A DNA stretch of 62,928 nt from an uncultured Armatimonadia bacterium (GCA_963749155.1 CAVVLO010000007.1:1-62928); one strand, 5' to 3'; numbered from the stretch's first letter, positions 405-40,524 are shown. Notes: a model not told the origin generated them from the letters alone. Numbers and translations are program-made.

Positions 405-1317
405 ATGTTCGACCCGACAGTAAAACTGACCGAGGCTGGAATCAAGGCCTTGCCCCCGCTTGCGGTTGATGGCGCCTGGGGTACCGAGCTTGCCAAGCTG
501 GGCGCCGGGGCTGGCGAGATGTGCGATCCCTGGAATATCTCAGCTCCCGAGAAAGTGCTTGCCGTCGCCCAGAGTTATGTCGAAGCGGGCGCTCAGATAA
601 TTCTGACCAATACTTTTAACAGCAACCGCATTGCGCTCGAGCGCCACGGCCTGGCGGACCAGGCGGTCAGCATAAACAGGGCAGGGGCCGAACTGTCCAG
701 ACAGGCCGCAGTGGGGAAGGCTTATGTCTTCGCCTCGATGGGGCCGACTGGCAAGCTCGTGATGATGGGCGATGTGGAGCCCGAAGAGGTTATCGAGGCG
801 TTCGCTGAGCAGGCTCAGGCCCTGGCCGAAGGCGGGGCTGATGCGTTGCTGCTGGAGACTCAGACCGATCTCGAAGAGGTCCAGGCGGCTTTCGCAGGCG
901 CCAGGAGCGCCTGCGATTTGCCAATCGGGATATCTTTCACCTTTGACTCGGGCGCAAATAACGACCGCACTATGATGGGAGTCACCATCCCTCAGGCCTG
1001 CGAGCTCGCTCTGGAGCTTGGCGCGGCTTTCGTGGGCGCCAACTGCGGCCTTGGGATAAGTCAGTTCCTTCCCCTGGCCAAGGCTTACGACGAGTGCAAG
1101 ACCAACTTGCCTCTCTGGTTCAAAGGTAATGCTGGCTTGCCTGAGCTGGATTCGGCGGGGCATACCTGTTTCCGGGCCACACCTGAGGATTATGTAGCCG
1201 CCGCCGGGCCCGCTACTAGCGGCCGGGGCGCGTTTTATCGGAGGGTGCTGCGGTTCGACCCCTGCGCATATCCGCGCACTCCGGACCGAGCTGGACCGTC
1301 TGCTGCCTCAGGGGTAG
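405..1317 (+). CDS. Homocysteine S-methyltransferase family protein (stand-alone MetH Hcy-binding domain); one +1 frameshift near 1208
   Basis: [34 protein letters not shown] and NAGLP motifs; the shifted frame supplies [19 protein letters not shown] (Zn-binding GGCC) and stops at TAG 1315-1317; AGGAGG RBS. Confidence 0.9.
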
Positions 1318-1363
1318 CCGAAGTGGGGAAGGGCGCTCTTTCTCTACAGGATATTAAAACGAT

Positions 1364-1403
1364 AACGCCCCTGCCGGACCTCGACAGGGGCGTTTCATTT
1401 TTT
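1364..1403 (+). terminator. Rho-independent terminator between convergent genes
   Basis: AACGCCCCTG-loop-CAGGGGCGTT stem followed by TCATTTTTT. Confidence 0.75.
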
Positions 1404-1415
1404 GGAAATTGGACT

Positions 1416-1733
1416 TCAATCGCCAGATTTTGCGAGCGCCAGTTGCTCGTCTATCAGCCGCTTGAGCTGCGGCGCGGCGGGCACCTCGGCCCTCAGTGTG
1501 ACCTGCCCAACTCTTAGCAAAGGCAGCGCCGTTGGATGCTTCTCCGTCACCGTGAACCGCATCGCGCTCGGCCTTGGCTTCACATAATGCTCTTCGCAGA
1601 CGACCCGGCCCTCGTACTGGGGAAGCACTGCGGCGAGGACCTCTTTCAGATAGCCCGTGCGTATGCCACAAGGCCCGCAAGAGATATCATCGCCCATCCA
1701 GTAGAGATGCAAAGTCAGTTCTGGCGCGCTCAC
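1416..1733 (-). CDS. Small thioredoxin-fold protein with CGPC motif
   Basis: SCGPC near the N-terminus and a cis-Pro-like ALPLLRVG segment; GTGA start overlaps the upstream stop; resembles the fused domain of the neighbouring gene. Confidence 0.7.
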   Translation of the reverse strand: MSAPELTLHLYWMGDDISCGPCGIRTGYLKEVLAAVLPQYEGRVVCEEHYVKPRPSAMRFTVTEKHPTALPLLRVGQVTLRAEVPAAPQLKRLIDEQLALAKSGD

Positions 1734-3095
1734 AGGTAGCTCTCAACAGCCGCCTTTAGCTCTGCCGCGGTCGGCACGATGCTCGAGAAGACGACTTCTC
1801 CATTGATGAGGATGGTCGGGATGGCCTTCGCGCCCGAGGCATAGACCCAGCGCAGGCCTTCGCGCTCTTTTATCATATGCTCGTAGTAGGCAATCTGGCC
1901 AGGATATTCAGCCGCGACTTTCTCAATGATCTCCATCACATACTGGCAGGGCGGGCAAGCGGCCGCGTCCAGGGTCAGCGCGTCGATGCGCACTTTCGCA
2001 TCGCCCGGGTCGAAAGAAACCGCAGCCAGTTCTTCGGCGGTGAAAGTCTCTCCACCGGCCTGTTCGAGCGCAGAAGCGAGTTGCTCGGCCGAGACAGAAC
2101 CCTGCACCAGGTCCGAGATAGCCTTGATATTGGCCGGCGGTACATCATAAGGGATATCGCAGCCTGGCGCGAGTATATAACCAGGCCCGGCAGCTTTGCC
2201 AAGCACCTCGCTAGGCATGGGCGAGGTTGTCCTCCGGGGTGCCGAACAGCATTACGGTGGTAAGCGCCAGATTGCCGCCGTAGCCTACGTGATATTGCTC
2301 GCCCAGGGCCTTGGCTTTGGTTATGTCCACGTTCTCATCGAAAGCAAAACCGTCCGCGCCGGACTGAGCCATCAGTTCGAGGTTGCGCGTGGCGTCTCCA
2401 CAAGTGAAGAGCATTGATTTCTTGCCGGCGACCCTGGCGACATCCCAGGACGCCTGCAAGGCCGGTGTAACGAATTCCTCAAACATGGCGGGGGAAATCT
2501 GACTGGTCATCGGATCGACCAGCGAGATGACATCCGCGCCTGCGTCCACGTAATACTGGCACATCGCAGCGGAAACTTCCGAGGTGAACTCGAGGATGGC
2601 CTTTGCGCGCTCGGGCTCCAGCACCATATCGGTCAGGATGTCGGTGCCAGCCAGGTGCAAGCCCAGGGTGAAGGGGCCAGTCACGAGAGCGAACAGCGCG
2701 ACTTCCTCGCCGAGGGTAGCAGCCAGGCGACGGGTAGCCTCGAGACCAACTGGGATGCGCGCCTCATCGGGCCCGGGCACTTTCAGCTCGCTTACGTCGA
2801 CTGTGGACAGGATATGGCTGGTGACGTGAGGGGGATTATCTTTGGCCCAGCCCAGTTTGCAGCCCAGGGCTTCGGCTTCGATTTGCAGATCGAACATCAC
2901 GCAGTAACCATCGGCGTTGTAAAGTTCGTGGGCTTTCTCGATGCCCTTGACAACCAGGTCGGCTGACTTCAGGTAGACATCAGCTGGCGTATCAATCAGA
3001 GCGGCGGCGTGCACGCCAGTATAAACTACGAAGGGCGTGCGGGTCGGCTGTTTGTATTCCAGCGCGTCAAGCACGAGTTGCTTCTTGGCAGACAT
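1730..3095 (-). CDS. UroD/MtaA-CmuA family methyltransferase with a C-terminal thioredoxin domain (CPPC); one +1 frameshift near 2214
   Basis: FDLQIEAEALGC, GPFTLG, DAGADVI, FTCGD, GGNL, then YILAPGCDIP and TLDAAACPPCQY...AIPTILINGE in the next frame; GAGGAG RBS before ATG 3095. Confidence 0.85.
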
Positions 3096-3429
3096 TTTGG
3101 TTGTTCTCCTCAATAGTGTTAGCGTCCTCTGGGGACGTCCTGCCTAGTATGAACAGGTTGCGCGCCGGTGTAAAGGGGTTTTGGCGATATTTGTATACTA
3201 TTTTAGTAGAATATGCGCCGCAACTGGCTTCAAGAGGCCCAGGAGGAGGTTCCTCAGGAAGTCCTGGGCAAATAATGGCATAATCAGTATTATCGGACGG
3301 ATTTTCCGGGAGCGACCCGCCACCCTTCAGCTCCCTCCTGGCTTTCCCCCTCCGCCTGGCAGGGAAACCTCTCCCTTTCCCGAAAGCCTTAGGCGCGCGC
3401 TGTAGTGACAACGTATGGAGGTTTTCAAA

Positions 3430-6612: not shown

Positions 6613-8308
6613 CTAGTCGGCAAGCTGGGCGACGGCGATGACGGAGCGTTTCGCCGGCACCTCGACCTGGCAGGTGTAGGTCGGGCCGGCTGGGCCTTCC
6701 GGCTGGAGCACATACTCCCGCCGCGCGGCCTGGTCGGTGCTGTTCCATACCGCGACCTGTAGCTCTGGGCCCTGGTGATAGAGGCGCGCGAAGACCCCTT
6801 CGGCCAGGCGCGGACTGACGATGACTGGGTGGAAGTCCTCCGAGGCCAGCAACCGCGTCACTGCGGCTTCCGCGGCCTCCTTGCCCGGCTCTTCAGCAAC
6901 CAGCACTTGCCCAGGATAAGCCGCGATGAGCTCTGGTGAGAGCAGCCCATGTTCCCAGGGCGCAATCAGATTCGCAGGGGTCATCGAGAAGCGCGGTTTG
7001 CCCTGGATATAGGTGCTGACCGGGTCCGGCCAGAGGGTCAGAGGCATCAGGTTGTGCTCGGCCAGCGCGTCGTAGCAGAACATATAAGACTGCTCCGTCT
7101 GCCAGTGTTCGTTGTAGTAGGCGATGCGATCGTCCAGCACCCCCAGGTCATCGAAAAGCGGCGCTCCCGAGCGGCTGGGAGAATACTTCTGCAACGTGCT
7201 TGAAACCTTCAATGTGCGATTCGGCACTCGGTTTGGCATAGGCCCACTGATACATCAGCGCCAGGTCGGGATTGTGCGCCACCTTCATCCACTCGGCCAT
7301 CTCGAGCGAGTCCGGCACGCGCGAGATGCCATCGGCCATATCGTCGGTCGCCTGGTTCAGCCACTCGGGGATAACACACCTGTAGCCCAGCGACTGCAGA
7401 GTGAGCGTCTTGCTGCTTTTGGCCCACATCGAACCCCAGCCATACTCGTGCAAGGCGAGAGTGTCACCTTGCGGCGCGGCAAGGAATAGCTCCCACAGGT
7501 CGAGAGCGCACTGCCGGCTTAACTCGGCGTGGTTGGAGAAATACAGATGGTAGAGCTTCACGCCGCTGACGGCCCAGACGGGTTGTTCGGCCCGTACTGT
7601 CTCCTGGCAGCGATTGAGGAACTGGGCGAAATTCACGCTGCGCCAGATGGCATAGTCGAGGCCGAAGGGGGTGGTATCCTCCGGACGCGGCAGCTCCAGG
7701 GTATCGAAGCTCTCGAAAGCGGTTCCCCAGCGCGTGTTCCACCAGGCGAGGTCGGGATTGAGGTCCTTACAAAAGTCCACGAAGGCGGCCTTCGCCCAGG
7801 GAGAATAATCGTAGCCTGCAGTCAGTTCGTTGTAGAGGCTTACGTGGGCGATCCGGTCGTCCCCTGCATAGCGTTTTGTGAAATCCGACAGCAGCTTGCA
7901 GAGGTCCTCGAGATAGGGTTCGCAGGCCCAACTGGCCATTGTCGGCTTGCCTTCGGCGTCGATGGCGCTGACGTCTACGCCCTCGTATTGGCCGGCGCCG
8001 CGGTACCATTCGCCGTGCAGCACGAGGACTACTTTCAACCCCAGCCGGTCAGCCTGGTCAATCAGCCAGTCGTTGCCGGACTGGTCGCCGCTGGCCGCAT
8101 TGGCGTCGATGAGGACGGTGCGGGCGCCGAGGGAGGCCATCCCCTGAAGGTCTGAGAGCATTGTGGCCTTGCTTGTTTCATCGAGAGAAGGCGCGCACTG
8201 CGGGCCCGGTGGGTGGTAGCACAGGCCGAAACCGAGGGGCTTATCCGGTGCTGTGAATCCAGCCCTGGCGAGGAGGAGCAGCAGCGCCAGCGCGCAGGCC
8301 AGCTTCAC
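6613..8308 (-). CDS. Secreted clan GH-A glycoside hydrolase (GH42/GH5-like); one +1 frameshift near 7168
   Basis: Signal peptide; LYNEL acid/base; WNTRWGTAFESFDTLELPR (GH42-like insert); VIPEW putative nucleophile; frames join at QPLG/APLFDDLG. Confidence 0.7.
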
Positions 8309-9024
8309 TGCTCAGCCCTCCTGATGATACCGATGGGGGTTAGCTCGCGCCCCTGGCCAAGTGGATTGCCGATGAGGCACTTCTTTACGAACTTCGCATC
8401 CAGGCCTTTCGATACCCCCAGGACTTCCTGGCCGAGGTCGTTGGCGTCCACGATGGAGACCGGCACGCCTCCAAGCAGCTGTGAAATCTTCTCGGATGTG
8501 CCGTCGGGGTCTTCAGGCATCAGCGAGCAATATTTGTCGAAGGGCGGCAGGTTGTAGTCGGCAGGTCCGTCAATGGCCGCGACCTTGCGCCCGGCGATGC
8601 GATAGAAGACGCCCTTCAGCCCGAAAGGCTTGGTGATTGCCGCACAGAAGGCGGCAAAGAGGATACGCGGCAGGCCGACTTCCTCGATGGCCAGTTGCAT
8701 CGTCTGCGGCCAGGTTACCCCGATGCCGTAGGGGACTTTGGAGATATACTTGGTTAGCACCCGGGCCCAGTAGCCGGGCTTGATATCATCCACGTGGCGC
8801 ACGCGCCCCTGCGCGCCGCCGACCATCTTCTCGCTGGCAATCACGATGTCGCCAGGCTGCAGCTTGTCGGTCACATACTGGAGGAAGACGTCCTCATAGC
8901 CTGAGCCTGGCTGCACTGCGTGAGTCGCAATAGGAAGCCTTAGCCAGGTAACGCCATCAATCTCGACGGCCAGTTCCCTGCCTGGATTGGCCCTAAAGCC
9001 TTCTGGTGCCTGTTGCTCGCTCAC
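8305..9024 (-). CDS. CofE-like (F420-0:gamma-glutamyl ligase family) protein
   Basis: LPIATH, GDIVIASEKMVGGAQGR, IVDANDLG and NPLGQG...TPIGII match bacterial F420-ligase homologs. Confidence 0.8.
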   Translation of the reverse strand: MSEQQAPEGFRANPGRELAVEIDGVTWLRLPIATHAVQPGSGYEDVFLQYVTDKLQPGDIVIASEKMVGGAQGRVRHVDDIKPGYWARVLTKYISKVPYGIGVTWPQTMQLAIEEVGLPRILFAAFCAAITKPFGLKGVFYRIAGRKVAAIDGPADYNLPPFDKYCSLMPEDPDGTSEKISQLLGGVPVSIVDANDLGQEVLGVSKGLDAKFVKKCLIGNPLGQGRELTPIGIIRRAEQ

Positions 9025-9097
9025 GAGGTGCCACTTCCTCTTTCAATAAAACTTGTTTTGCTGCAAGTTTACGATACTCGGTCCTTCCGAGGAACCC

Positions 9098-10336
9098 CTA
9101 AAAGGGGGCTTCGGCAAGGGCTGCCCTGGCTTCGGCCTTGTGTTTTCTCTCAAACCAGTGCATAAGCGCGGCCACGGCCAGGAGGGCAGGCAGGTCGAAA
9201 TACATCGCGGTCCTCAGGCCAAGGCTCTCCGAGAGCAGCCCGATTACATAAGGCATCGTGATGACGCCCAGTCCGCCCATAGCCACCAGGACGCCGGTGC
9301 CGGTCGCGCCATATTTGGCGTACCACTGGCCGCCAACCGCCACGATGGTAGGCCACAGGCCTGACAGCGCCATCCCGCCCAGGCCAAACAAGACCATAGA
9401 CTGCCAGCCCTCAGGCGCTGCAATGCCCGCGCCGATAAAACCCATCGCAAGCAGCGCGCAGATTTTAAGGAGTACGGTCAGTTTCACCGTCATCGTGAGG
9501 CGCAGGTAGGCGATACGCCCGAGGAGCATCCCGCCCCAAAACAGCGTCGCGGTGAGCGCGGCCAGCGACTTGGGCAGGCCCTGCTCGCGCTCAACAAAGG
9601 CGGATACCCAGCTTGCGCAACCCATTTCGCCGCAGACGTAAAGAAACAGGGTGAGGCAGAGCAAAAGGAAACCGCCATCGGTTGCGAGTTTTTTCACGAT
9701 GGACAGGTCCAGGCGGTGGTCGCCGTCGGTCTTCTTCGGCAGGATGAACTGGCAAAGCGTCGCCACCAGCGAGACGGCCGCACAGAGGCCAAAGCCCAGT
9801 CGCCAGCCGTCCGCAAAGCGCAGTACCAAGGCTCCGAGCACAGGTGCCGTAAGCGCGCCGACGCCGAAGACCGCCTGCACGAAGTTGAGCGCCGGGGCGC
9901 TCTTCTCCTCGAAGACATGGTTCACCAGGGCCGATCCGACGCCCTCCACGATACCCGCGCCAAGCCCGACTGCGATCAGCCCGGCGACAAGCACCACAGA
10001 GTTGGGTGATATGGCGCAAAGGAAAGCCCCTACCGACAGCATTCCTGTGGAGAGCAGCATCAGCCGGCGCATCCCCAGCTTGTCGGCGAAATATCCGCCC
10101 GTCAGCGCCGAGGCGAAGAAGCCGAATTGCATAACGCCGCTTATGAAGCCGCCGGCTGCATCATCCATACCGAAGGCTTCCATCACCGAGGTCAGCACTG
10201 GGCCGACCAGCGCGTAGGTCAGCGCGAAAGCGCCCACCGACAGGCTCGCAGCCGCAAGCACGCGCTTGTGCAGCAAGGTAGGCAGCAATCCGGACTCGTT
10301 TTTAGTTGCAGCGGTCACAGCGGATGATCTCGGCAT
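9098..10336 (-). CDS. MFS transporter (sugar permease-like)
   Basis: About 12 hydrophobic helices; motif A-like GYFADKLGMRR; LFLYVCGE...SW and FWGGMLLGR resemble FucP/TsgA-like permeases; start codon uncertain. Confidence 0.85.
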   Translation of the reverse strand: MPRSSAVTAATKNESGLLPTLLHKRVLAAASLSVGAFALTYALVGPVLTSVMEAFGMDDAAGGFISGVMQFGFFASALTGGYFADKLGMRRLMLLSTGMLSVGAFLCAISPNSVVLVAGLIAVGLGAGIVEGVGSALVNHVFEEKSAPALNFVQAVFGVGALTAPVLGALVLRFADGWRLGFGLCAAVSLVATLCQFILPKKTDGDHRLDLSIVKKLATDGGFLLLCLTLFLYVCGEMGCASWVSAFVEREQGLPKSLAALTATLFWGGMLLGRIAYLRLTMTVKLTVLLKICALLAMGFIGAGIAAPEGWQSMVLFGLGGMALSGLWPTIVAVGGQWYAKYGATGTGVLVAMGGLGVITMPYVIGLLSESLGLRTAMYFDLPALLAVAALMHWFERKHKAEARAALAEAPF

Positions 10337-11069
10337 CGTTATATACGGGTGCGATCTGTTCTCCTGGGGGCACGATGAGGAAGTCTTCCTCGTTCCACTC
10401 GCCCCAGAGCAGCTTCTTCAGGAGAATCAGGTCGGCTTGCTCCTTCTGGAAGGTCCAGCCTTTACGTTCAGCCTCTTCTCGGGCGCCTTGTTCATAGTTG
10501 GAGAAGTCGCCGAAGGGCACTTCGAGGTAGCAAAGGGTGTCATATTTGGCCGTGCCGCCCTCTCCCCCAAGCGTTTCGAGGATGTATTGAGCGTTCTCTT
10601 CGCCATACTTCTCGATGAGTTCGGCATAGTTTATGGAAGAAAGCCCAAGCTGCGTCATCGTGCTGTCGAGTTGGCCATTCTCGAGCAGCTCGGGATGTTC
10701 GCGCTCTATCCATCCTGTGCTGCGGAAATAAGTCCCAGGATGCTCATCGAAGAAACGCCGATAACGCTTGCGCGAGCCCAAAAGCAGCGTGATGCAATCA
10801 TGGCAGCGCGGCACTACCAGCGGCAGGTGACAATGCAGTCCCTGGATGCCGTTGCCGCACAGGCCATACCCCAGCAGGATGGCCTCATATTCATCTTCGG
10901 GCACCGCATCGAGGGCTTCCTGCAAGAGAGAACTCATCTTCGGAGCGCCCATATCGTGCAGGCCTTTCTTCATAAACTGGACATCCACGATATGCGGGGT
11001 TGTCGCAAGCAGCCAGCACAGTTCGCGATACAGGATGTCACAGGCGATTAACTTGTACTTATGAGCCAT
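10302..11069 (-). CDS. DUF1638 domain protein
   Basis: LIACDIL, GLH..., ILLGYGLCGNG, VPRCHDCITLLLGS, GTYFRSTGW signature. Confidence 0.85.
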   Translation of the reverse strand: MAHKYKLIACDILYRELCWLLATTPHIVDVQFMKKGLHDMGAPKMSSLLQEALDAVPEDEYEAILLGYGLCGNGIQGLHCHLPLVVPRCHDCITLLLGSRKRYRRFFDEHPGTYFRSTGWIEREHPELLENGQLDSTMTQLGLSSINYAELIEKYGEENAQYILETLGGEGGTAKYDTLCYLEVPFGDFSNYEQGAREEAERKGWTFQKEQADLILLKKLLWGEWNEEDFLIVPPGEQIAPVYNDAEIIRCDRCN

Positions 11070-11084
11070 ACCTCGTGCTCCATC

Positions 11085-11122
11085 AAAAAAGATGCCTCCG
11101 GCGCTCGAAGCCACCGGAGGCG
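11085..11122 (-). terminator. Rho-independent terminator after the UroD-family gene
   Basis: Minus strand GCCTCCGG-tggcttcgagcg-CCGGAGGC followed by ATCTTTTTT. Confidence 0.7.
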
Positions 11123-11124
11123 CA

Positions 11125-11153
11125 ATCTTACTCTATCTGGCCCAGCTTGTCAG
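11125..11153 (-). promoter_or_regulatory. Putative internal sigma70 promoter for DUF1638-MFS
   Basis: Minus strand CTGACA-N17-TAAGAT immediately before the hairpin. Confidence 0.4.
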
Positions 11154-12244
11154 TCGATGCCCAGCAGCTCTTTCTTCCGCTTGATGTAGTACTGGAAGTT
11201 GGGATAGCTGATGTCGGGCGGCATCGAATGGTCTACCGAGATGACCATCCCGCCTTCGAGGGTCTCGGGGGTTATGCGCCTGGCCAGTTCAGCCTCGATG
11301 GCCTCGGGGCCTGCGGCGATTGCCCGCTTGTCGAAGCCGCCTTCGAGCCGAAGCTCCTTGCCGAACTGACGCCTCAAGCCTACGATGTCCACGTCCGAGG
11401 CAACCTCGCAAGGGTAGAAGTAATTGACTCCGCCCTCGAGCCACAGGGGGATGAGTTCATCACAATTGCCATCGCTATCCACGTAGCAGAGGTCTATCCC
11501 CTTGCTGCGCACGAGGTCGGTGACCGCTTTGTAGCCCGGCAGCATAAACTCCCGGAAGCTCTTCGGCGAGATAAGCGGGCCGCGCTTGTAGCCCATATCC
11601 TCCCAGAAGCCAACTGCCTCGGGCAGGTCGTCCTTCATCAGGTCGAGGGCGCGCCCGTAACTGTCGAGGAAGAGCATCGTGATATGGTCTTCAATCTCAT
11701 GCAGCAGCTTCGGGTCGTCGTAGAGGAGGAAAAGCAGGTTCTCGACGCCCATAAATTCTCGGATAGGTCCGAAGAAGCCAACACACCTGGCCCCGTAGAG
11801 CCTGATGGCAAGCCCAGCCTCGTGCAAGGCTTTGGCTTTCTGGGCCAAATCAGCGGGTACGCGGTCAGGTGAGGGCTGCATCCGCTCATCGCGGAAACGC
11901 TCCCAGGAGGCGCGGTCCGTAACAGGGAACTCAAGAAACTGGGGCATCGAGAGCTCTTTGTCCGCCCCCTTATGCTCTTTCAGGAGCTGACCACTCTCGT
12001 TGATGTAGACGATGTCTTTCTCGTCCTCTTCCAGCACCTTCACTTCATACTGCGGATAGGGCCCGCACTGCACATTGAAGACCGGCCACTGGTCCATCGC
12101 CTGAAACTCGGGGATTGGTCCAGGCTCAAGGCCCTCTGTCAGCCATCTCTGATGTGTGTGATACCACGGTCCCCAGTCCCAATAGGGCGGGCGGTCTACG
12201 GGCTTGTAGTGGAACCAGTTGCTGATGCGTTCACGGCTGGTCAT
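11150..12244 (-). CDS. UroD / methyltransferase-II family protein (DSDG...DH subtype)
   Basis: MTSRERI N-terminus, GFFGPIREFMGVENL, FWEDMGYKRGPLISP, YVDSDGN, GGFDK, SVDHSMPPDISY. Confidence 0.85.
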   Translation of the reverse strand: MTSRERISNWFHYKPVDRPPYWDWGPWYHTHQRWLTEGLEPGPIPEFQAMDQWPVFNVQCGPYPQYEVKVLEEDEKDIVYINESGQLLKEHKGADKELSMPQFLEFPVTDRASWERFRDERMQPSPDRVPADLAQKAKALHEAGLAIRLYGARCVGFFGPIREFMGVENLLFLLYDDPKLLHEIEDHITMLFLDSYGRALDLMKDDLPEAVGFWEDMGYKRGPLISPKSFREFMLPGYKAVTDLVRSKGIDLCYVDSDGNCDELIPLWLEGGVNYFYPCEVASDVDIVGLRRQFGKELRLEGGFDKRAIAAGPEAIEAELARRITPETLEGGMVISVDHSMPPDISYPNFQYYIKRKKELLGID

Positions 12245-12253
12245 TGAATCCTC

Positions 12254-14506
12254 CTAAGGCAGCTTCGGGCCTGTGTTGGTAACTGTAAGCAGATAATTGC
12301 CAGGTTTTATATCGAAGGCCAGGTCAGGCCCTTCCCCACTTGCCACTTCGCCGCCGGCCGCCAGTTCCAGCTTCCAGGCGAAGGGGCCAGTGTTCCAGTC
12401 ATGCCAGACGGTCTTGCCTTTGGGCACGAGTCGCAGCCGCACTTCTCCAGCCTCGACTACAGTGAAACGCGCCCTGAGAGCAGGATCGAGTAACTCGAAC
12501 TGGGTGAAGCCCGGCTGACCGCCAAGCAGTTCGAGGTGGGGTGTCGGCTGGCCGGCCAGTGAGGCCAGGCCTTCGACCTCAAAGGGCTCGAGCCTGATCC
12601 CTTGCAACTCGAAGCCTTGCTCTGTCTCACGGTAGCAAAGCCACGGGCAGCCTTTGCGGAAGGCCCAGGGAGTGCCGCTGGCCGGGACAAGGGCCTTCTC
12701 GAGTTCGACTTTCGTGCCCTCGGTGCGCCAGTTCACCAGCACTGCGCCGCGCTCGAACTGCTGCAGATGCACGTTCGGTTGCTTCACGCCTGTGATGCGG
12801 CAGACATATTTCACCAGTTGCTGCCAATCGGCAAGTCCCACTGGAAGGCCTTCGAGGCGAAGCTGCTTGCCGCGGCGCTCAATTACCTCCCCTGCCGGCA
12901 AGGTCCAGGCCAGCTTTAGCGCTCCGGATACCTCTGGCAAATCCACCTCGCGTTGCACCGCAAGCTGCTCGGAGAAGGCCAGTTTGCCGGTCGCGGGGGT
13001 AAACAGAGGATCAAATCCCCGAGGATATTCCAGCACTACCAGCGGAGCGAGCCGGCTTTGAAGCTGCTTGATGACGCCCTCTGGCTCAGCGCAGGCGTCA
13101 ACCACCCAGACGGCCTCATAAGGATTGGTCTCGAGCAGGGCCAGAGCGCGCGGCGAGTGTTCTTCCATCACATCGAACAGGTCGCCTTCGGGGGTGTCCA
13201 TCAGGGCGATTAGCTGCCGCAACACTCCTCCGTAGAAGGCATCATCGGCGTCAGGCAGCCAGAAGGCGTTGCGCGAAACGATAATCGCGAAGGGCTTGTG
13301 AGAGGCGCCAAGGCGCGTTTTGGGTTGCAACAGGTCCAGGTCGGCGCGCAGGTTGCTTGTCTCTCTCAGCAAGGCCCCTTCCGAATAAAGCGAGCATCCG
13401 CCACTATCGCCTGGGATAGCCCAGCTAAACAGCGTCCACAGGCCGACTGGCTCCGACAGGGCGCGCCAGATGACACAGCGGACCTCGTCGGGCGTGGGCG
13501 TGAAGAACCGTTCTCCGCGCTTCTTGCCAAACTCGGTCAGCGCCACCGGCCGGCCATAAGCCGCCGCAAAAGACGTCTCCATCGCGACCGAGCCGAGGAA
13601 AGTGCTTTCCTGCGGGTAACAGGTGATGCCACAGACATCAACGGGCACCTCTGGCCAGTAGGACCAGTCGGTATCATAGCGCGGGCTGAAGCCTGCCGCG
13701 TCTACCCAGCGGCTGACAAGCGGCAGGTCGGGCATTTCGGCCTTCGCTCGCCTCGCCAGTTGCCCCTGATAATGGACCTGAGTCAGCCAGGGCCGGAACC
13801 GGTGCATCCATACCCGCACCAGCCAGTTGTCATCCGAGGGAAGGATGGCCCCCCAGTTTGCAAAAGGCTGCCCGGCAGCCTCTGAGAAAGCCTCCAGGGA
13901 GGGATACTTCTCGGAGAGCCACTGCTGGAAGAGCGCCACCGTATGCGGATTGCCCCCCAGCTCTTCTACTTCTAGCCAGGCGCCCATGCTTGGTTCGGAT
14001 TCGAGATATACGCCGACTACGGCCTGGCTGTCGGCGGTCTGGAGACGCTGTTTAATGACTTCCAGACGCTTCGCCAGCAGGTCGTATAGCGCGGGATTGG
14101 CAAGGCAGGTGCGCGAGGTGGGCGTACCGTCCAGCTTGAGTTCTGCCCAGTCGGGCAGAGCCGCCTTGTCAGCCTCGGACAGCGTGCACTGGCCACAGAC
14201 TGAGGCCCCATATTCATGCCCAATATGAAGCAGCGTCTTCAGGCCTTTTTCCTCAGCCCAGGGCCCGAAATCACCGCCATTGTCCACCGAGATGAGCGGG
14301 TCGAAGGCTGGCCTGAGCAGTGCCAGTTCCGCGTCATCATGATTGGCCAGCCCTAGAATCTGTACCCCTGGCCAGCTTGGATAATAGAAAGTCGTGATGA
14401 GAGGGCGCGCAGAAGTCGCCTGCTCGAGCCAGGCGCCATCCCAGGGAGCAGCGGCAGCCAGGCTGCAAAACAGCAGCCCACAAACCAGGAGCACAAGCCA
14501 GGGCAC
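12254..14506 (-). CDS. Secreted GH42-like glycoside hydrolase
   Basis: AAGGAGG RBS then GTG; signal peptide; LESEP acid/base; FQQWLSEKYPSLEAF GH42-like segment; ALTEFG putative nucleophile. Confidence 0.65.
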   Translation of the reverse strand: MPWLVLLVCGLLFCSLAAAAPWDGAWLEQATSARPLITTFYYPSWPGVQILGLANHDDAELALLRPAFDPLISVDNGGDFGPWAEEKGLKTLLHIGHEYGASVCGQCTLSEADKAALPDWAELKLDGTPTSRTCLANPALYDLLAKRLEVIKQRLQTADSQAVVGVYLESEPSMGAWLEVEELGGNPHTVALFQQWLSEKYPSLEAFSEAAGQPFANWGAILPSDDNWLVRVWMHRFRPWLTQVHYQGQLARRAKAEMPDLPLVSRWVDAAGFSPRYDTDWSYWPEVPVDVCGITCYPQESTFLGSVAMETSFAAAYGRPVALTEFGKKRGERFFTPTPDEVRCVIWRALSEPVGLWTLFSWAIPGDSGGCSLYSEGALLRETSNLRADLDLLQPKTRLGASHKPFAIIVSRNAFWLPDADDAFYGGVLRQLIALMDTPEGDLFDVMEEHSPRALALLETNPYEAVWVVDACAEPEGVIKQLQSRLAPLVVLEYPRGFDPLFTPATGKLAFSEQLAVQREVDLPEVSGALKLAWTLPAGEVIERRGKQLRLEGLPVGLADWQQLVKYVCRITGVKQPNVHLQQFERGAVLVNWRTEGTKVELEKALVPASGTPWAFRKGCPWLCYRETEQGFELQGIRLEPFEVEGLASLAGQPTPHLELLGGQPGFTQFELLDPALRARFTVVEAGEVRLRLVPKGKTVWHDWNTGPFAWKLELAAGGEVASGEGPDLAFDIKPGNYLLTVTNTGPKLP

Positions 14507-14517
14507 AGCGGGCCTCC

Positions 14518-16752
14518 TTAAGGGGCCAGTATGAAAGTAGGCCACAGGACAGGGCTTGCTCCCTCGGCCAGGCCAGGCGCCAGGGCGAAGGAGGTTGCTT
14601 CGGTCCGGGGCGAGTCAGTTGCGTGCAGCACGACATTGGCTCGCAGCAAGGCGCCTTCCGAAAGCTCTCTGCCTAGCAGTGCCCAGGGCACCGCCACTTC
14701 ATAGCTCGTGATGCCCTCGCTGTGTTTCACCTTGAAATAGAAACGCTCTGGCTGCATCTTGCCCGGCCCATGCGCCGAGTGAAGCACAGGGCCCTTGTCG
14801 GTAAGCGCAAGCTGCAACACACAATCGTCGGGAGCCGGCAGCGCCGTGGCTTCTCCCGCAGTTGACAGGCCCACTGTCAAGGCATCTCCGCGCCACAGCA
14901 AGCCCTTCGAATGGGAGTTCGTGGGCATCTCGTCAGGCACCTCGGCCGCCAGATAAAGGAAATTGTCGTCATATCCAAGCCAGCAGGTGGCCCGTTCGAT
15001 GGGGCTGATGCGGGTAAACTTCCCGGGCTGTTCCATCTCGCGTGTCTCGGAAAGATAAAAGGCTTTCTTCCCGGCCCATTCGTCGAGTGCTCCATCTACC
15101 CTGGCAGTGAGTGGATTTACCAGTCCCCAGCCAAGAGGCCGGGTCAGGTCGAAAGCCACCGCGCCCGCTGTGCCGAAAGTTGCCGCAGCGCCCAGCCTGT
15201 AAAGGACACCTGGCTCCGGGACGAAGGAAAGCGGCACCTTCACGAACTGGGTCGAATTTGCTTTGGCGGTATAAGCCTGGGTAGACCATTCTTTCTTGCT
15301 GCCCGCTTCATCCGTCCAGGCGCTGACCCAGATCTCCCCCGAGGCGGGGCGGAGTGACCGGTTCTGGAGCAGCACAGGCACGACAGGCTTGCCTTCACTA
15401 TCAGTTTGCTGCACCAGCGCAAGGTCGACGCGCAAGGGCGCGACCACCTGGATGCGCGCGCGCCCCTCGAGCAGTTCCTGCCCGCCGAGGGTGCCAGTTA
15501 TCGTGAGTCCGGCAGCCCGTTCGGGGGCGCCAGCCACTAGCACCTGAACTGGCAAGATAACCTCCGAGCGAGGCGGCAGGTCGGCCTTCAAAGTGAGCGC
15601 GGCGATTTGGAAGCTGGGGTCGGCCACGAGCTGTAATTCGGCTTTCCGCGCCAGTGAATCGTAATTCCTGAGCACGAGGGGCAAAGTCAGTTCATCGCCC
15701 ACCGTGACGGAGGCAGGATAACTCCCTACGCCAATGAAGGCGCCTTTGGTATAGGCGTCCGCCCAACGACGCGTCACGCGCAGCCTGCCCTCTCCCTTTT
15801 CAAGACTTGGCTCTACCTGGGTGCCAGCAACCCAGTCATTGAAGCTGTCAAGGACAATCCAGTCGGGATCGAGCGGGATGAGAAAACGCCAAAGCTGTTC
15901 TTGCCAGGTTTCAGGGGTGAACTGATACCCCTGGGCCTGCATCACCTGGTCGAGGTTGGGCGAGAATCCTGTCGAGAGCACGGGCGCGGTAAGCAGCCCC
16001 AGCCTGCGGCCTTCACCGACCAGATAGGAATATGTCTCATCCGGAGCGCCATAAGGGCCAAACGGAGAGGCGGCCAGGCCAGCCGAAAAGGCCCCAAATT
16101 GCTCGGCCAGCACCGAAGGCGCGACCTGAGGCACGAGTCGCCACTTGTAGGTTTTCGTGTCGAGTTGCTTGAAGACGAGGAGCCACTCATCACCAGTCAA
16201 CGATTTTACGCAGGCTTCAGAAAGAAACAGCACGCGCGTCCCATCAGGGGCGAACCAGGCCGGACTTGCGCCAAAGCCGGACAAGAGATAATCGAGCGCC
16301 GAGGCGACTTCGTAGGGCTCGCCAGGCCAGGAGGCGTCTACAAGACAGGTGATTTTAAGAGCGCCATCGCGCTCTGCCAGGGGAAGCAGCTTGGCAAGGC
16401 AGGCCTCTTCCTGCCCGCCTCTCGCCCCCCAGCGCACGATGAAGGCGTCGATTGAATTGATGCGCGCCTGCCGCAGATGGCCTTCCAGCACGGCAGAGTC
16501 CGTAGAATCATACGGCCCCCCCTCTGGCGTCAGAACGGAAGCCAGGTCAGGCTGGCCGGTCTCGGAAAGGGTGGCCGGGTCGTGGCCCTCGGCATTCCAA
16601 AGACGCCAGGCGCCCGAGCCTTCCGGATTGCCGTAGCCGCCCTCGTAAAGGGCCAGCACATATTTGGCCGGTAGCTCCGAGGCCGGTGAGGCCAGCGCAT
16701 AAGCGCCAGCAAGCAGCAAGCAGCAAACAAGCAGGCGGGTTAATAATTTCAT
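14518..16752 (-). CDS. Secreted GH99-like protein with Ig-like linkers and a C-terminal CBM9/DOMON-like domain; catalytic motif degenerate
   Basis: Signal peptide; YGNPE, GPYDSTD, IDAFIVRW, SFNDWVAGTQVEP; C-terminal VDGALDEW...GYDDNFLYLAAEVPD...YEVAVPW. Confidence 0.75.
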   Translation of the reverse strand: MKLLTRLLVCCLLLAGAYALASPASELPAKYVLALYEGGYGNPEGSGAWRLWNAEGHDPATLSETGQPDLASVLTPEGGPYDSTDSAVLEGHLRQARINSIDAFIVRWGARGGQEEACLAKLLPLAERDGALKITCLVDASWPGEPYEVASALDYLLSGFGASPAWFAPDGTRVLFLSEACVKSLTGDEWLLVFKQLDTKTYKWRLVPQVAPSVLAEQFGAFSAGLAASPFGPYGAPDETYSYLVGEGRRLGLLTAPVLSTGFSPNLDQVMQAQGYQFTPETWQEQLWRFLIPLDPDWIVLDSFNDWVAGTQVEPSLEKGEGRLRVTRRWADAYTKGAFIGVGSYPASVTVGDELTLPLVLRNYDSLARKAELQLVADPSFQIAALTLKADLPPRSEVILPVQVLVAGAPERAAGLTITGTLGGQELLEGRARIQVVAPLRVDLALVQQTDSEGKPVVPVLLQNRSLRPASGEIWVSAWTDEAGSKKEWSTQAYTAKANSTQFVKVPLSFVPEPGVLYRLGAAATFGTAGAVAFDLTRPLGWGLVNPLTARVDGALDEWAGKKAFYLSETREMEQPGKFTRISPIERATCWLGYDDNFLYLAAEVPDEMPTNSHSKGLLWRGDALTVGLSTAGEATALPAPDDCVLQLALTDKGPVLHSAHGPGKMQPERFYFKVKHSEGITSYEVAVPWALLGRELSEGALLRANVVLHATDSPRTEATSFALAPGLAEGASPVLWPTFILAP

Positions 16753-16789
16753 ACTTGCCTCCAGGCCCCCGGCAGGGGCCTTGCCAAAC

Positions 16790-18068
16790 TCAATTGCCTG
16801 GCGCTTTGAGCAATACGCCCTGGCCAGGTGCAAGCCAGACTGATTCACCCTCGAAAGACGCCAAGTGTGCCCGTGTAAGGACAGAGCCACTCGCCTGGGC
16901 CTTCGCCAGTTGTCCATTCAACTCCCATCGGGGCCGAACGCACCAGGTCCAGGTTTACGATAATCGCCCAGCGCGTGCCATCCTCGTGGCGGAACTCGCC
17001 CACCAGTGCTGGCACGCCCGAATGCAGCGCCTTCAGCACCTGACCGCCCTCTGGCTCGAGTCCAGGCAAGCCATCCCGGGCCTCTGGGAAAGTATACAGC
17101 CCGGTCGAGGTCGGCCGGTTGATAGTCGGCGCCAGTCCGCGCAGCTTCAGATTCACGTTGCGAAGCACATCAAAAGTAGCGGTCTTGTTGCCGAAGACGT
17201 CAATTGCCGCAGCTCGATAATTGCCGTGCAGCCGGTCGTGGAAGGTGAAATAGACCAGCCCCCTTCCCCCTGCCGCCAGCGTTGTGAAAGCCTGCAGGCG
17301 CGTGGTCGCAGGGCTTGGTTCGGCGTATGAGAAGTGCGCGTTGCCCAGCACGACATTGCAGTAGGGCAGCCCGCTCGCAAGCGAGGCGCGCCTGAAAGCA
17401 TCCAGATTGGCGAAGTAGCCTGCCCGTATGGAGCCATCTTCCATCAGCGAGTAATTGTCATAACTCAGCACATTGGGCCCAACTTCGGCGATGAACCGGG
17501 TCACATATTCGTCATAACTGGCCGCCCCGAGTTGTTCGGGCGAGGCGTAGTTGGGAAAGAGATTCACGAAAATCAGCTTCCCGGGCGCATATTTGGCAAT
17601 CGCTTTGGCCACCACGCTGATTCCTTGGAACCTGGCAGTATTCGGCTCATCGGTAAGCAGATAACCCAGCACCCAGGGATTGGACGCCGTTTCGGCTGCA
17701 AGAGACTTGACGCGCTCTTCCACCTGGGCTGGGTCAACGTTCAGCCAGTCATATTCCGAACAGCGCGGGTCCCATACAAGTGCCGCCAGTCGATGGCGCT
17801 GGCAGAGCCCAAGCTGGGCTACACTGGCAGGCGCTACGAGGGTCATCCCGCACTCTACCGCCAGGCGCGCGCCCTCTTCCTCGGTCAGTCGTCCGCCTAC
17901 TCCTGCAAGCTCGCCCCAGCCGCCAATCGGGAAGAAAGCCCTGGCCTTGTCACTTGCCTCCATCCCTGCTGGCCACTGGCCGCCATACAGGCCTGGCTCT
18001 TCGAAAGCCAAAGCTGGCAGACTTAAAACAAGAATCAGCCCGAGTAGCAATACTAGCTCCTGTTGCAT
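16790..18068 (-). CDS. Secreted uncharacterised TIM-barrel glycoside hydrolase-like protein; +1 frameshift near 16850
   Basis: Signal peptide; GYLLTDEP, FVNLFPNYA, LSYDNY, LAAGGRGLVYF; true C-terminus ...SVWLAPGQGVLLKAPGN* ends at 16790; GGAG RBS. Confidence 0.7.
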
Positions 18069-19894: not shown

Positions 19895-21471
19895 CTAAGG
19901 TTTCAGGCCCCATTCTTCAGCCAGGCCTTTCAGCACGAAGAAAGATTGGCGCGGCTTGTTCTCAGTGTCCAGGAAGCCCCCATGCGGGAAGAAATGGCCG
20001 CTTTTGTCCGTGAAATCCCACCAGCTTATGGCGTGGACTGACGAATGACCATAGCAGAGGGTGTAAAACTCGCGTACCCATTCGGCCTGAAGGGCTTCGT
20101 CCCAGGGCCTACGCCAGGTGCCCATACCCTTTACCGCATCCGGGCCGTAAGGGCTCATTGGGTCGGGCTCCATCGAACCTGGCACCGCAAGCTCGGTCAC
20201 GTGAAGTGGCTTCCCAAGCCCTGCGAACCGGTCGATCAACCTGTAGATTTCGAACTGGTCCCGGCTCGGATAGTAGAGCTGCAGGCCGATGACATCGAAG
20301 TCTACCCCCTCCTCGAGCAGTGCCTGACAATACTGATAGGCACTGCAGAGGCGCTCTTGAGGCGCTGGTCCGCCTACATCGTGGCCGCCGGCTACGTATT
20401 CGGCGGTCAGGTAGCAGTTGTTAACGACCAGCAACGCCTCGGGGTCGGCGGCCCTTGCGGCCTCGCACCCGGCCCGGGTGATGTCGCGCAGCTCAGCCAG
20501 TGACAGCCCCAGGCAGTTGGCCCAGCCGTGGGCTTCGTTTATGACATCCCAGATGCGTATCGTGTCCTTGCAGTGGCTTACTCGTCTCGAAAACGTGGTC
20601 ATAGACTTCCCGGCGCAGTCCTGCATATCCTTCGGCCTTGTAAAGCTCGCGCAGCCAGTCGGGCGTGGTGTCGGGATAAAACCAGATAAGCGGATGCCCC
20701 TTGGCTTCAGCGCCGTTAGCCTTCAGCCAGCCAGCCTCGGTAAGAGGTCTCTCATACTGCGGATTGCCGCGCTCTGGCTCGAAGCCCTTCAGGTAGAAAG
20801 GTACTGTCCCATAATTCAGCGCCTGCAGATACTGCCTGGCGTAGTCGTCCTCTGGGGTCGTGTAGTGAAAGGCGTTGGCGCCCAGGCGGAAAGGCTTGCC
20901 CGGATGGGCCGCGATGCGATGGCGGGAGACCTCTTGCACGGCGTCTTCGGCCGCGCGCATCAGAATCGAGAGCGCCTCCCAGCCGGCCTTCGAGCGGTGC
21001 GGCATATCGCCGCTCTCCGCCTCGCGCAAGAGACGTCTGGCCTCTTCAACGCGCTCCATCAGTCCGGCTGAATAGTGGCAGCCTTCCTCTGCGCCTTCGG
21101 CCATCAGGTGCTGCAAAGCGGCAAGCCTGGTCGTGGCGAGTTCCCACTCGACCAGCAGCTCATCGCCGGCCTTGTAACCGCGCCCTTTGCCATCCAGCGG
21201 CAGTCGAACCGCGTAATGCCCTGCCCGGCGTCTCGATATCCCACTCTACCAGGAAGGCGCACGGGCTCTCTGAGGGCTCACAGGTCCTTCGCCAGTCCTC
21301 TGTCCCTCTGAATTCGCAGGCAAAGGGGTTGTAGTCCAGGTCCATCGCATAGAGGGCCGCCTGGCCAAAGGTCGCTCTCAAAGAGCCCTCCCTGTCCAGC
21401 GAAACCAGTATGATGGGCGAGGCCATAACCATCCCTCCAACAAGCAGCAGAGCCAGGGCGAGCAGTCTCAT
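19895..21471 (-). CDS. Secreted GH10-like (endo-xylanase family) glycoside hydrolase; two +1 frameshifts (about 21220, 20580)
   Basis: Signal peptide; KGHPLIW, WDVINEAH (acid/base), DVIGLQ, LHVTEL (nucleophile), SWWDF; AGGAGG RBS. Confidence 0.8.
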
Positions 21472-37800: not shown

Positions 37801-38757
37801 CGACCTTTGACTGGAATCAGATTGCCGAAGGTATCGTCGTAAGCGCTACCTACCAGATGCACCTCGAAGGTGAGGATATCGCCCTGTGGCCGGACAATAT
37901 CGGCCTGGTGAAGGGCGACTGGTGCCCCTGGGTATTCCAGCCGCAGCTAATAATCGATCCACTGATGGCCTTGCTCGAGCGCCCAATCGAACCTGCCTAC
38001 AGGGTGCTGCCTCTTGGCGACTATCCAATGCATGTCGTGGCTTCCCAGAAGCTGCTCTCGGCGAGGCTCGAAGGCGATTCTGTAAGCGTGGAAGTAGACT
38101 TGCCCGAGCATCAGCCAGGCCACGTGCTGCTGGCCCAGGTCGCAAGGCCAGGCGCGGTGCTGGTTGATGGCCAGCAGGTGCCGGAACTCAAGCTTCCCCT
38201 GCCTGAGGAAGGCCTGGCGTGGACTTATGTGCCAGGCCAGTCAATGGTCGTCGTGCGTCTCGGGGTGACAGGGACAACACACGGTGCAGGTCTCGGGGCT
38301 TGTGCCAAGGCCGATTTTGCTGACCGCGGCGCGCAAGACTGACCTCAATTTCGAGTTCAACGAAGGTATGGACGGCTGGCTGCCACAAAATGGTATCGGA
38401 GAGCTTTCGGTGGCCGAGGGGGCGCTTGTCATCCAGGTCACGGCCCCCGATCCCTATATGGCGCGCGGCAACCTGGAGGTCGCGGCCGCTGACATAAAGC
38501 GCCTGGCGCTGAGGATGAAGCTCGAAGGGCCAAGTCCGGCCGATTATGGGCAGCTTTACTTCAGCACCAAAACGAATACCGGTTTCACCGAGAAAGCCGT
38601 GGTGAAGTTCGATGTGATACCTGATGGCCAGTGGCACGAGTACCTGCTTGAAGTAGGCGCCCAGCCTCTGTGGAAGGGCACTATTACCTCGCTAAGGCTC
38701 GATCCGGGTCAAGCTGCTCCCGCCAGGGCGCTCGTGGATTATCTGAAACCAGAATAA
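34849..38757 (+). CDS. Very large secreted protein (about 1300 aa): CBM-like, CARDB/NPCBM-associated Ig domains, beta-supersandwich, (alpha/alpha)-toroid, C-terminal CBM-like; three +1 frameshifts (about 36265, 37125, 38280)
   Basis: Signal peptide, NPGFE, LLLDDF; TVKNAG and IENTG Ig repeats; RAAQVWEVPVHTPDILA, YELTGKQDYLDEA, SIPVFGAS, PVQWNG; DGQWHEY...SLRLDPG; GGAGG RBS. Confidence 0.75.
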
Positions 38758-38760
38758 GGC

Positions 38761-40215: not shown

Positions 40216-40223
40216 AAAAGAGA

Positions 40224-40523: not shown

Positions 40524-40524
40524 T

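Follow-up and report, generated by a model that had tools for sequence, protein, structure and literature searches.

Methyl ethers on sugars block glycosidases, examples being 4-O-methyl-glucuronate in xylan, 2-O-methyl-fucose and 2-O-methyl-xylose in pectin, and 6-O-methyl-galactose in red-algal galactans. In marine porphyran users a cytochrome P450 oxidatively demethylates 6-O-methyl-D-galactose, in an oxygen-dependent reaction that loses the methyl group as formaldehyde. To our knowledge, this P450 route is the only way in which sugar methyl ethers are known to be removed, and the one sugar O-demethylation tied to glycan-degradation loci. It involves no corrinoid, and its enzyme family is unrelated to the protein considered here, a UroD-fold protein (hereafter UroDL) encoded within an 11.5-kb run of genes at positions 6613-18068 of a contig from an uncultured Armatimonadia bacterium (CAVVLO010000007.1). 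This contig, C7, was analysed over its entire length of 62,928 bases (the window) and belongs to a 4.17-Mb genome of seven contigs. As a sequence-only reading of the locus had proposed, UroDL and the adjacent DUF1638 protein appear to take part in corrinoid-dependent methyl transfer, a view backed by a phyletic profile shared with the activase RACo, by conserved gene islands and by a predicted complex.

The closest described corrinoid systems are MtaA/MtbA/MtsA and the bacterial Mlp clusters, which (Kountz and Balskus, PMC10418091) have in common with the present system the UroD fold (MtaA, 4ay7, is among the top Foldseek matches of UroDL), a small corrinoid protein, a RACo/RamA activase and several UroD paralogues per genome. 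UroDL differs from MtaA, MtbA and MtsA in giving no match to the mtaA_cmuA family and in having Asp-x-Asp...Asp-His in place of His-x-Cys...Cys, and here about 50 paralogues are present, dispersed from the corrinoid gene and with glycosidases rather than sulfur/selenium genes as neighbours. The three- and four-component O-demethylases (OdmB/VdmB, a corrinoid protein, a methyltransferase II (MT-II) and an activator) have the role that we propose for UroDL, that of a methyltransferase I (MT-I) moving the methyl group of a methyl ether to Co(I), and an ASKHA activator is likewise encoded in this genome; here, however, no pterin-type MT-II is present, the likely acceptor is a homocysteine S-methyltransferase domain protein (HMT), the substrate is possibly a sugar and the components do not form one operon, and OdmB/VdmB are compared with UroDL by role. 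Finally, the split methionine synthase (Price et al., 2018, PMC5764234) and the MtgBCD system (PMC12478193) likewise combine a stand-alone HMT, a stand-alone corrinoid protein, RamA/RACo and DUF1638; in Ruegeria, MtgBCD makes one corrinoid hub serve both methionine synthesis and substrate demethylation. The methyl donors there are methyl-tetrahydrofolate (methyl-THF) and glycine betaine, handled by pterin-binding and MttB-type enzymes, whereas the present genome has many UroD-fold candidates and no methyl-THF:corrinoid enzyme that we could find.

UroDL matches the Pfam family URO-D (PF01208) at 37.2 bits (cut-off 23.9), over residues 166-356, that is, in its C-terminal half only. Its AlphaFold2 model (predicted local distance difference test score, pLDDT, 94) has the UroD (beta/alpha)8 fold, and the top Foldseek matches in the PDB are HemE and MtaA, at template modelling (TM) scores of 0.57-0.65 and 12-17% identity. 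No NCBIfam family matched at E≤0.01, including mtaA_cmuA (TIGR01463) and HemE (TIGR01464). We collected 1280 homologues at E≤0.001, the named ones being mostly from Armatimonadota, with others from Planctomycetota, Hydrogenedentota and Latescibacterota; the titles of genome contigs carrying relatives extend this range to Chloroflexota and Lentisphaerota.

The zinc ligands of MtaA are His-x-Cys...Cys, and the corresponding H239, C241 and C319 are conserved in five MtaA-type UroD neighbours from related genomes. In an alignment of 23 sequences, the invariant positions are instead WEDM (214-217), D256-x-D258-G and D338-H339-x-x-P-x-D. Profile alignment with hhalign placed D256 and D258 in the His and Cys columns and S340, beside D338-H339, in the last Cys column, so that the site reads D-S-D...D-H-S against H-x-C...C in the MtaA-type neighbours. 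Because UroDL matches no NCBIfam family and its zinc ligands are replaced, we reject membership of either MtaA/MT-II or HemE, and the MT-II/MtaA-type label first given to this protein has to be abandoned. Oxygen and nitrogen ligands at such a site would fit a substrate with an O-methyl group. Our search for longer proteins in which UroDL is fused to another domain yielded four, none of them joined to a B12-binding domain; the fusion partners were Aminotran_1_2 and an FGGY kinase, in one cluster each. The FGGY carbohydrate kinase fusion (899 amino acids (aa), 35% identical to UroDL) is a single one-member cluster and may be a gene-calling merge.

The distribution of UroDL closely follows that of the corrinoid activase. 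Among 400 genomes of the phylum, with a UroDL profile applied at E≤1e-40 and RACo_C_ter as the comparison (counts read by eye from two lists), 226 carry both, one UroDL only, four RACo only and 169 neither, which leaves five discordant genomes. The telling part of the profile is the match inside patchy families, where the same genomes carry UroDL and RACo (7 of 32 in family f18 and 3 of 47 in f21). DUF1638 homologues are present in 191 of the 400, and presence and absence at the family level match in all 30 families listed. UroDL is thus very probably corrinoid-dependent. Consistent with this, the predicted complex of UroDL with the corrinoid protein of its own genome scored 0.85, 0.86 and 0.85 on the interaction prediction score from aligned errors (ipSAE), and none of three controls rose above 0.00; the mark used for this score is passed by 116 of 157 solved complexes and by 2 of 215 mismatched pairs. 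The three runs share at least 95% of their contacts, partner pLDDT is at least 85, and both the cap helix and residues 101-105, the DxHxxG loop, belong to the predicted interface. As a prediction, this modelling supports binding of UroDL to the corrinoid protein.

The window itself has no B12-binding or RACo gene, and only DUF1638, HMT and an MtaA-like gene share the contig of UroDL. The corrinoid protein with a DxHxxG motif and the ASKHA activator that had been suggested for a search elsewhere in the genome both lie at C1:779-782 kb: the segment C1:779-783 kb encodes RACo (616 aa), a 212-aa corrinoid protein with a DLHDIG motif and a GFO/IDH/MocA gene. The 212-aa protein consists of B12-binding_2 and B12-binding and is the only cap-plus-B12 corrinoid protein of the genome, the other three B12-binding matches being two radical-SAM proteins and a protein of 650 aa. 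There are 56 URO-D matches in the genome, a few of which are gene pieces, leaving roughly 50 genes; 45 open reading frames (ORFs) match the UroDL profile. We found no MetE (0 Meth_synt_2 matches), MtrH or MtaB in the genome, nor any gene joining S-methyl_trans, Pterin_bind and B12-binding as in MetH, and its sole Pterin_bind gene is FolP, beside FolB and HPPK. A cobalt uptake set (CbiM, CbiQ and an ABC ATPase) at 38684-41169 (minus strand) of the window fits corrinoid use by the organism.

The third line of evidence comes from the neighbourhoods of DUF1638. In the 20 loci carrying the nearest homologues of this protein (41-54% identity), which we searched by tblastn and by Pfam annotation of 136 neighbours, a full-length UroDL-like gene (28-41% identity) lies within 4 kb of DUF1638 in 14 (15 counting a Pfam URO-D neighbour in L149), where the chance expectation for a UroD paralogue within 7 kb is about 0.09. 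HMT genes 44-52% identical to that of the window occur within about 5 kb of DUF1638 in 13 of the 20, directly adjacent in seven, and this bears out the proposed link of HMT to the methyl-transfer genes. Pfam annotation adds a corrinoid protein in three loci, MtaB in three and RACo in two. The islands are made up of the corrinoid protein, MtaB, a protein of about 360 aa, a UroD protein of about 400 aa, HMT, DUF1638, Methyltransf_24, a 353-aa UroD protein, a GFO/IDH/MocA oxidoreductase and GH35, and near them lie RACo, a canonical MtaA-type UroD gene and FTHFS. The conserved protein of about 360 aa, which falls in no Pfam family, sits between MtaB and the UroD gene in L139, L143 (4754-5842), L146 and others, and it has paralogues in the genome of the window at C3:577949-578872 and C6:2904-3794.

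In five loci, the HMT-adjacent UroD paralogues carry D-C-D-G...D-H, to be compared with D-S-D...D-H in UroDL. These HMT-adjacent types of the relatives are paralogues distinct from UroDL, to which they are 18-37% identical, and in the genome of the window the orthologues of the 399-aa HMT-adjacent type and of the 379-aa type found downstream of DUF1638 in L143 lie outside the window, at C1:228761 and C2:446136; the island is thus dispersed in this genome. DUF1638 itself has invariant C10, C71, C92, H38, H90 and D91, which could form a metal or iron-sulfur site, and in P. inhibens genetics has shown it to be needed for methionine synthesis with the split MetH (PMC5764234). A second DUF1638 in the genome is fused to Hydant_A_N/Hydantoinase_A, an ASKHA ATPase (939 aa, C4:39423-42242, minus strand), with GH9, GH120-like and amylase-like genes on its flanks; in at least seven other genomes of the class, DUF1638 matches lie within open frames of 931-1004 aa. 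The fusion therefore hints that DUF1638 works with an ATP-driven activator.

The connection with glycans is seen across the genome as well as in the window. Domains typical of carbohydrate-active enzymes (CAZymes) were found in Pfam annotation of 26 of 93 genes flanking UroD paralogues (22 of 41 loci), as compared with 12 of 80 genes (10 of 40 loci) in a random set of 5-kb loci at least 10 kb from any UroD paralogue (Fisher p = 0.044 for genes and 0.012 for loci); ORFs were called with codon-position GC, and seven paralogue loci in which the paralogue ORF itself was missed were excluded. The enrichment is real but modest. CAZymes or sulfatases also adjoin UroDL relatives in 8 of 30 loci from other genomes, and sugar-type GFO/IDH/MocA oxidoreductases, sugar kinases and isomerases recur near paralogues and islands. 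Elsewhere in the genome, an MTTB-superfamily gene (148 bits; C1:365583-366959, minus strand) has a UroD paralogue on one side and a PL8 polysaccharide lyase on the other, and is thus another corrinoid-type methyltransferase within a glycan locus. Our literature searches, with subscription journals and bioRxiv supplements outside their coverage, found no account of UroD expansions in Armatimonadota or of such a system.

The run of genes around UroDL is not conserved as a unit. In 80 genome loci with UroDL relatives (38-49% identity), searched by tblastn with the proteins of the window, there was no homologue of DUF1638, MFS, the CofE-like protein, or the 407-aa or 763-aa proteins, and a single GH99 match. 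Gene neighbourhood thus provides no direct link for the UroDL orthologue group. Conservation of the block UroD, DUF1638, MFS, CofE and GH across genomes, which the sequence-only reading had itself named as the test of its proposal, was seen in none of these 80 loci and in none of 20 loci centred on the CofE-like gene. The recurrent neighbours in the 30 UroDL loci with long flanks are UroD paralogues (11 proteins in eight loci), CAZymes and sulfatases (the eight loci given above), glycyl radical enzymes resembling pyruvate formate-lyase (PFL) (four loci) and one MTTB protein. The PFL-like enzymes are immediate neighbours of the UroDL relatives, in loci from Anaerolineales, Victivallales, Lentisphaeria and Gemmatimonadota (L012, L048, L063 and L065).

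Two further members of the run, the CofE-like and MFS genes, cannot be tied to a methyl-transfer pathway. A CofE homologue acts as an alternative folate glutamylase in Chlamydia, a role in which the gene here would stand in for a missing FolC. The protein misses the NCBIfam cofE family (TIGR01916; 25.1 bits, cut-off 180.65) and belongs to a family with 2433 homologues in non-F420 lineages, including Bacteroidales and Oscillospiraceae; within the phylum, it is present in 38 of 400 other genomes. Across 20 neighbourhoods of 17 kb each, no DUF1638, UroD or MFS homologue was found; the neighbours vary with lineage (glycogen debranching enzyme, YfhO/PMT_2, PNP_UDP_1, pseudouridine synthase), and a canonical FolC equivalog is present at C1:930528 (298 bits, cut-off 162.65). 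As no methyl or folate partner recurs beside the CofE-like gene across lineages, we dropped the folate-glutamylase link. The best NCBIfam match of the MFS protein is TsgA, at 90.5 bits and under the cut-off of 221, and in the other loci searched no MFS homologue adjoined UroD, DUF1638 or CofE-like genes.

As for the layout of the run, nine minus-strand ORFs cover 18068-6613 (Table 1), in agreement with the same-strand run of 11.5 kb described before; the 9-nucleotide (nt) spacing between the 763-aa ORF and the UroD ORF (12254/12244) and the GTGA overlap of the CofE-like stop with the GTG start of the next ORF (4 nt, 8305-8308) were also recovered. Such a co-oriented run is not improbable by itself, and its meaning depends on comparative tests. 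A strong terminator-like hairpin lies between the UroD-fold gene and DUF1638, so that the run may be two transcription units. A promoter scan gave three sites, with a mean of 3.0 in shuffled sequence, and hence no excess. Four public sequencing runs, all consisting of contigs, so that uncovered stretches carry no meaning, gave only two short RNA-library contigs from this region, both inside the GH99-like gene (covering 15065-15408), which prove no transcription and have no bearing on operon structure; no RNA run was listed as matching the window, and two RNA runs from the same study as the best-matching DNA run shared almost no sequence words with the window.

Six of the eight gene labels originally assigned (GH99, URO-D, DUF1638, MFS_1, F420_ligase and GH42) are backed by Pfam, whereas the TIM-barrel GH (407 aa) and the GH42-like protein of 763 aa have no support in Pfam or NCBIfam. 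The best match of the 407-aa protein among PDB sequences, a beta-galactosidase at E 0.13, is not usable; a 35%-identical homologue lies about 4.4 kb from the CofE-like gene in locus L122. The 763-aa protein gave no match among PDB sequences either, and its score of 0.93 to clusters carrying GH42/GH42M in a language-model feature look-up is a lead only. In the GH99-like protein, a signal-like segment begins at an internal Met near residue 56. The 386-aa ORF matches Pfam GH42 at 43.8 bits (cut-off 21; profile positions 106-350 of 376), and the 208-aa ORF has no match in Pfam, including GH42M, or in NCBIfam. An NCBIfam scan of 19 proteins of the window gained nothing for the three unassigned glycosidase-like proteins. 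A GH10 fragment is found at 19895-20626.

Table 1. Coordinates of the genes and the hairpin of the window treated in the text.
Feature	Position	Strand	Remarks
HMT, homocysteine S-methyltransferase domain protein	405..1517	+	Pfam S-methyl_trans, 167.8 bits; frameshift near 1200
MtaA/CmuA-type UroD protein fused to a thioredoxin-like domain	1730..3113	-	split by a frameshift near 2215
GH42-like gene, about 564 aa, signal-like N-terminus	6613..8308	-	Pfam GH42; read as two ORFs (8308-7148, 386 aa; 7239-6613, 208 aa)
CofE-like (F420_ligase-fold) protein, 239 aa	8305..9024	-	Pfam PF01996, 35.2 bits (cut-off 25); widespread family of about 230 aa
MFS transporter	9098..10336	-	Pfam MFS_1, 127.7 bits; Sugar_tr, E 3e-10
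DUF1638 protein (PF07796)	10302..11069	-	likely start Met at 11069 (ORF 11114-10302); Pfam 114.5 bits (cut-off 27), full profile length
Terminator-like hairpin	11094..11121 (11121-11094)	-	10-pair stem, 8 G-C, then a T-run ATCTTTTTTG; after the UroD stop (11150) and ahead of the likely DUF1638 start codon (11069)
UroDL, UroD-fold protein, 364 aa	11150..12244	-	no signal peptide; proposed substrate:corrinoid methyltransferase
763-aa secreted-type protein, possibly GH42-like	12254..14545	-	ends 9 nt ahead of the UroD-fold gene
GH99-like protein, 799 aa	14518..16917	-	Pfam Glyco_hydro_99, 55 bits (cut-off 33), E 9.2e-15, residues 85-374, profile 4-310 of 341
407-aa protein, hydrophobic N-terminus	16845..18068	-	ORF call; labelled TIM-barrel GH in the sequence-only reading

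Several genes of the window are interrupted. Reading of the frames shows that the 386-aa and 208-aa ORFs are the halves of one gene broken by a 1-nt indel near 7169, and a public DNA contig (run X1) lacks one base at 7169. The HMT gene predicted at 405 is there, though frame-shifted: profile positions 257-282 fall in another frame, as do the C-terminal motif IGGCCGS and its natural end. A further HMT copy, which is partial, lies at the extreme end of contig C5 (608759-609040). In the MtaA/CmuA-type gene, the part at 2211-3113 matches Pfam URO-D (178.9 bits) and NCBIfam mtaA_cmuA (139.4 bits, below the cut-off of 235.4), and the part at 1730-2218 holds the C-terminal end of URO-D, with its own GC motif, and a Thioredoxin_3/HUIPC_Trx match. 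The best NCBIfam match of this thioredoxin-like domain is a family of HUIPC-motif thioredoxin-like (seleno)proteins, which recalls the methyl-sulfur/selenium Mlp clusters of PMC10418091. Given the frameshifts in the GH42-like, HMT and MtaA-like/thioredoxin genes, the contig probably carries indel errors. A FAD_oxidored protein at 41942-43899 (minus strand) is probably split by one more: its two neighbouring ORFs, 229 and 423 aa long, cover profile positions 1-128 and 157-416, respectively, and the longer one also has an F5/8 type C domain.

We propose, at roughly even odds (a probability of about 0.5), that the run is a glycan-degradation string comprising four glycosidase-like proteins, secreted and very divergent, together with an MFS transporter and a CofE-like protein, into which two spokes of a genome-wide corrinoid methyl-transfer network, UroDL and DUF1638, would have been inserted. 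UroDL would be a substrate-specific methyltransferase of the MT-I kind that moves the methyl group of a small methylated compound to the Co(I) of the corrinoid protein at C1:781 kb, whose activity would be maintained by RACo (C1:780 kb) and probably also by DUF1638; from there the methyl group would pass to homocysteine through the HMT of the window, giving methionine. Our best guess is that the methyl group comes from an O-methylated sugar or some other methyl ether that the neighbouring hydrolases free from glycans, and a methylated sugar or glycan-borne methyl ether is plausible in this role; each of the roughly 50 paralogues would then serve a different methylated substrate. The data show the fold and its altered metal site, a family that co-occurs with RACo and DUF1638, the islands and a predicted interface with the corrinoid protein; which way the methyl group moves, what accepts it and, most of all, what donates it are inferred.

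A number of observations weigh against this proposal. UroDL lacks the zinc ligands of MtaA, and we know of no characterised corrinoid methyltransferase with an Asp/Asp/His site. Foldseek places the decarboxylase HemE first (TM 0.62-0.65), the activities not being separable by fold, nor by the profile and sequence searches of PDB chains that likewise confirm it, and the best PDB sequence match is also HemE, at E 7e-6 (range for HemE 5e-4 to 7e-6, in the C-terminal half). UroDL relatives never stand beside DUF1638 in the 80 loci, and the 120 nearest neighbours in 30 loci include no B12-binding or DUF1638 domain by Pfam; within the window, the terminator-like hairpin parts the two genes. The 400 genomes are kin, so that the profile overstates independence and the Fisher value computed for it overstates the case, and the threshold of 1e-40 admits island paralogues. 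The alignments used for the complex were self-built (23 and 4 rows), and its score may mirror a resemblance to complexes of corrinoid proteins in general. In this genome, which is rich in CAZymes, their enrichment near UroD paralogues is no more than about two-fold, with Pfam names sorted by hand and seven paralogue loci dropped. Both the HMT and the MtaA-like genes are frame-shifted in the present assembly, and the literature searches, within the coverage stated above, revealed no link of corrinoid methyltransferases to methyl sugars.

In a rival reading, UroDL is no methyltransferase at all and acts on sugar derivatives in another way, for instance as a decarboxylase or isomerase that depends on a metal, and it occurs together with corrinoid genes only through shared lineage and lifestyle: decarboxylases are its closest folds and PDB sequence matches, the Asp/Asp/His site is unlike that of known corrinoid methyltransferases, and its neighbours are mainly CAZymes rather than corrinoid genes. 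We regard this as very unlikely in view of only five discordant genomes in 400, with identical sets within two patchy families, of the UroDL-like gene within 4 kb of DUF1638 in 14 of 20 loci, five of them with the D-C-D...D-H site, and of a predicted corrinoid-protein interface scoring 0.85 against 0.00. A housekeeping role is another reading, in which UroDL and DUF1638 form a split B12-dependent methionine synthase whose corrinoid protein is charged by UroDL from a cytosolic donor such as methyl-THF, and the glycosidase setting is incidental. As the genome has neither MetE nor a MetH-type multidomain gene nor MtrH, and FolP is its sole pterin-binding protein, a methyl-THF:corrinoid enzyme is missing, and Kountz and Balskus float a UroD-type protein as an undiscovered tetrahydrofolate (H4folate) methyltransferase (PMC10418091). 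The requirement for DUF1638 with split MetH in P. inhibens (PMC5764234) points the same way, and a CAZyme gene is present in 25% of random loci of this genome anyway. Yet some 50 paralogues would be superfluous for a single function, the HMT-adjacent UroD types are other paralogues whose own-genome orthologues lie outside the window, and the orthologues of UroDL are scattered beside CAZymes, sulfatases and glycyl radical enzymes; such a role for UroDL thus seems unlikely.

The donor might also be aromatic, UroDL being an O-demethylase MT-I for the methoxylated phenolics of plant cell walls (ferulate, sinapate, lignin fragments) and not for sugars. The sole characterised O-demethylating members of the UroD superfamily, OdmB and VdmB, use phenyl methyl ethers, according to PMC10418091; a feruloyl-esterase-type gene (BD-FAE) and xylan- and pectin-type enzymes occur beside some paralogues, and the window holds the GH10 fragment. 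No aromatic-catabolic or methyl-THF (MT-II) genes were seen near the paralogues scanned, however, where sugar-type oxidoreductases, sugar kinases and isomerases recur instead, and we consider an aromatic donor quite unlikely. The pathway originally put forward for the locus was fuller still: one dedicated operon in which exported hydrolases release methyl sugars, the MFS transporter imports them, UroD and DUF1638 demethylate them and a pterin glutamylated by the CofE-like protein accepts the methyl group. The genes are indeed co-oriented and closely spaced, and in 2 of 20 other loci (L129, L131) some 4.5-5 kb separate a CofE-like gene from a homologue of HMT. This scheme is nonetheless highly improbable: the block is conserved in none of the 80 and 20 loci, the CofE-like neighbours vary by lineage with FolC present at 298 bits, the genome has no pterin-binding methyltransferase, and a terminator-like hairpin lies within the run.

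Extended to the saccharolytic bacteria of the phylum, the glycan-linked proposal becomes a hub and spokes, in which dozens of UroD enzymes with an Asp/Asp/His site, many of them encoded within glycan-degradation loci, would strip O-methyl groups from sugars or from other methyl ethers borne by glycans and pass them to one corrinoid protein, reduced by RACo and DUF1638, and on to homocysteine as the sole route to methionine; in this complete form we hold it to be rather unlikely. UroDL nevertheless stands for a very large and uncharacterised family of at least 1280 proteins with an altered metal site, present in 227 of 400 genomes of the phylum and tracking RACo at about 1:1, and together with the corrinoid protein of its genome it offers enzymologists a concrete pair. 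If the proposed activity is true, methylated sugars would for the first time be seen to lose their methyl groups by a corrinoid-dependent, oxygen-free route, which would fill a gap in anaerobic glycan breakdown and tie carbohydrate use to B12 demand and methionine supply.

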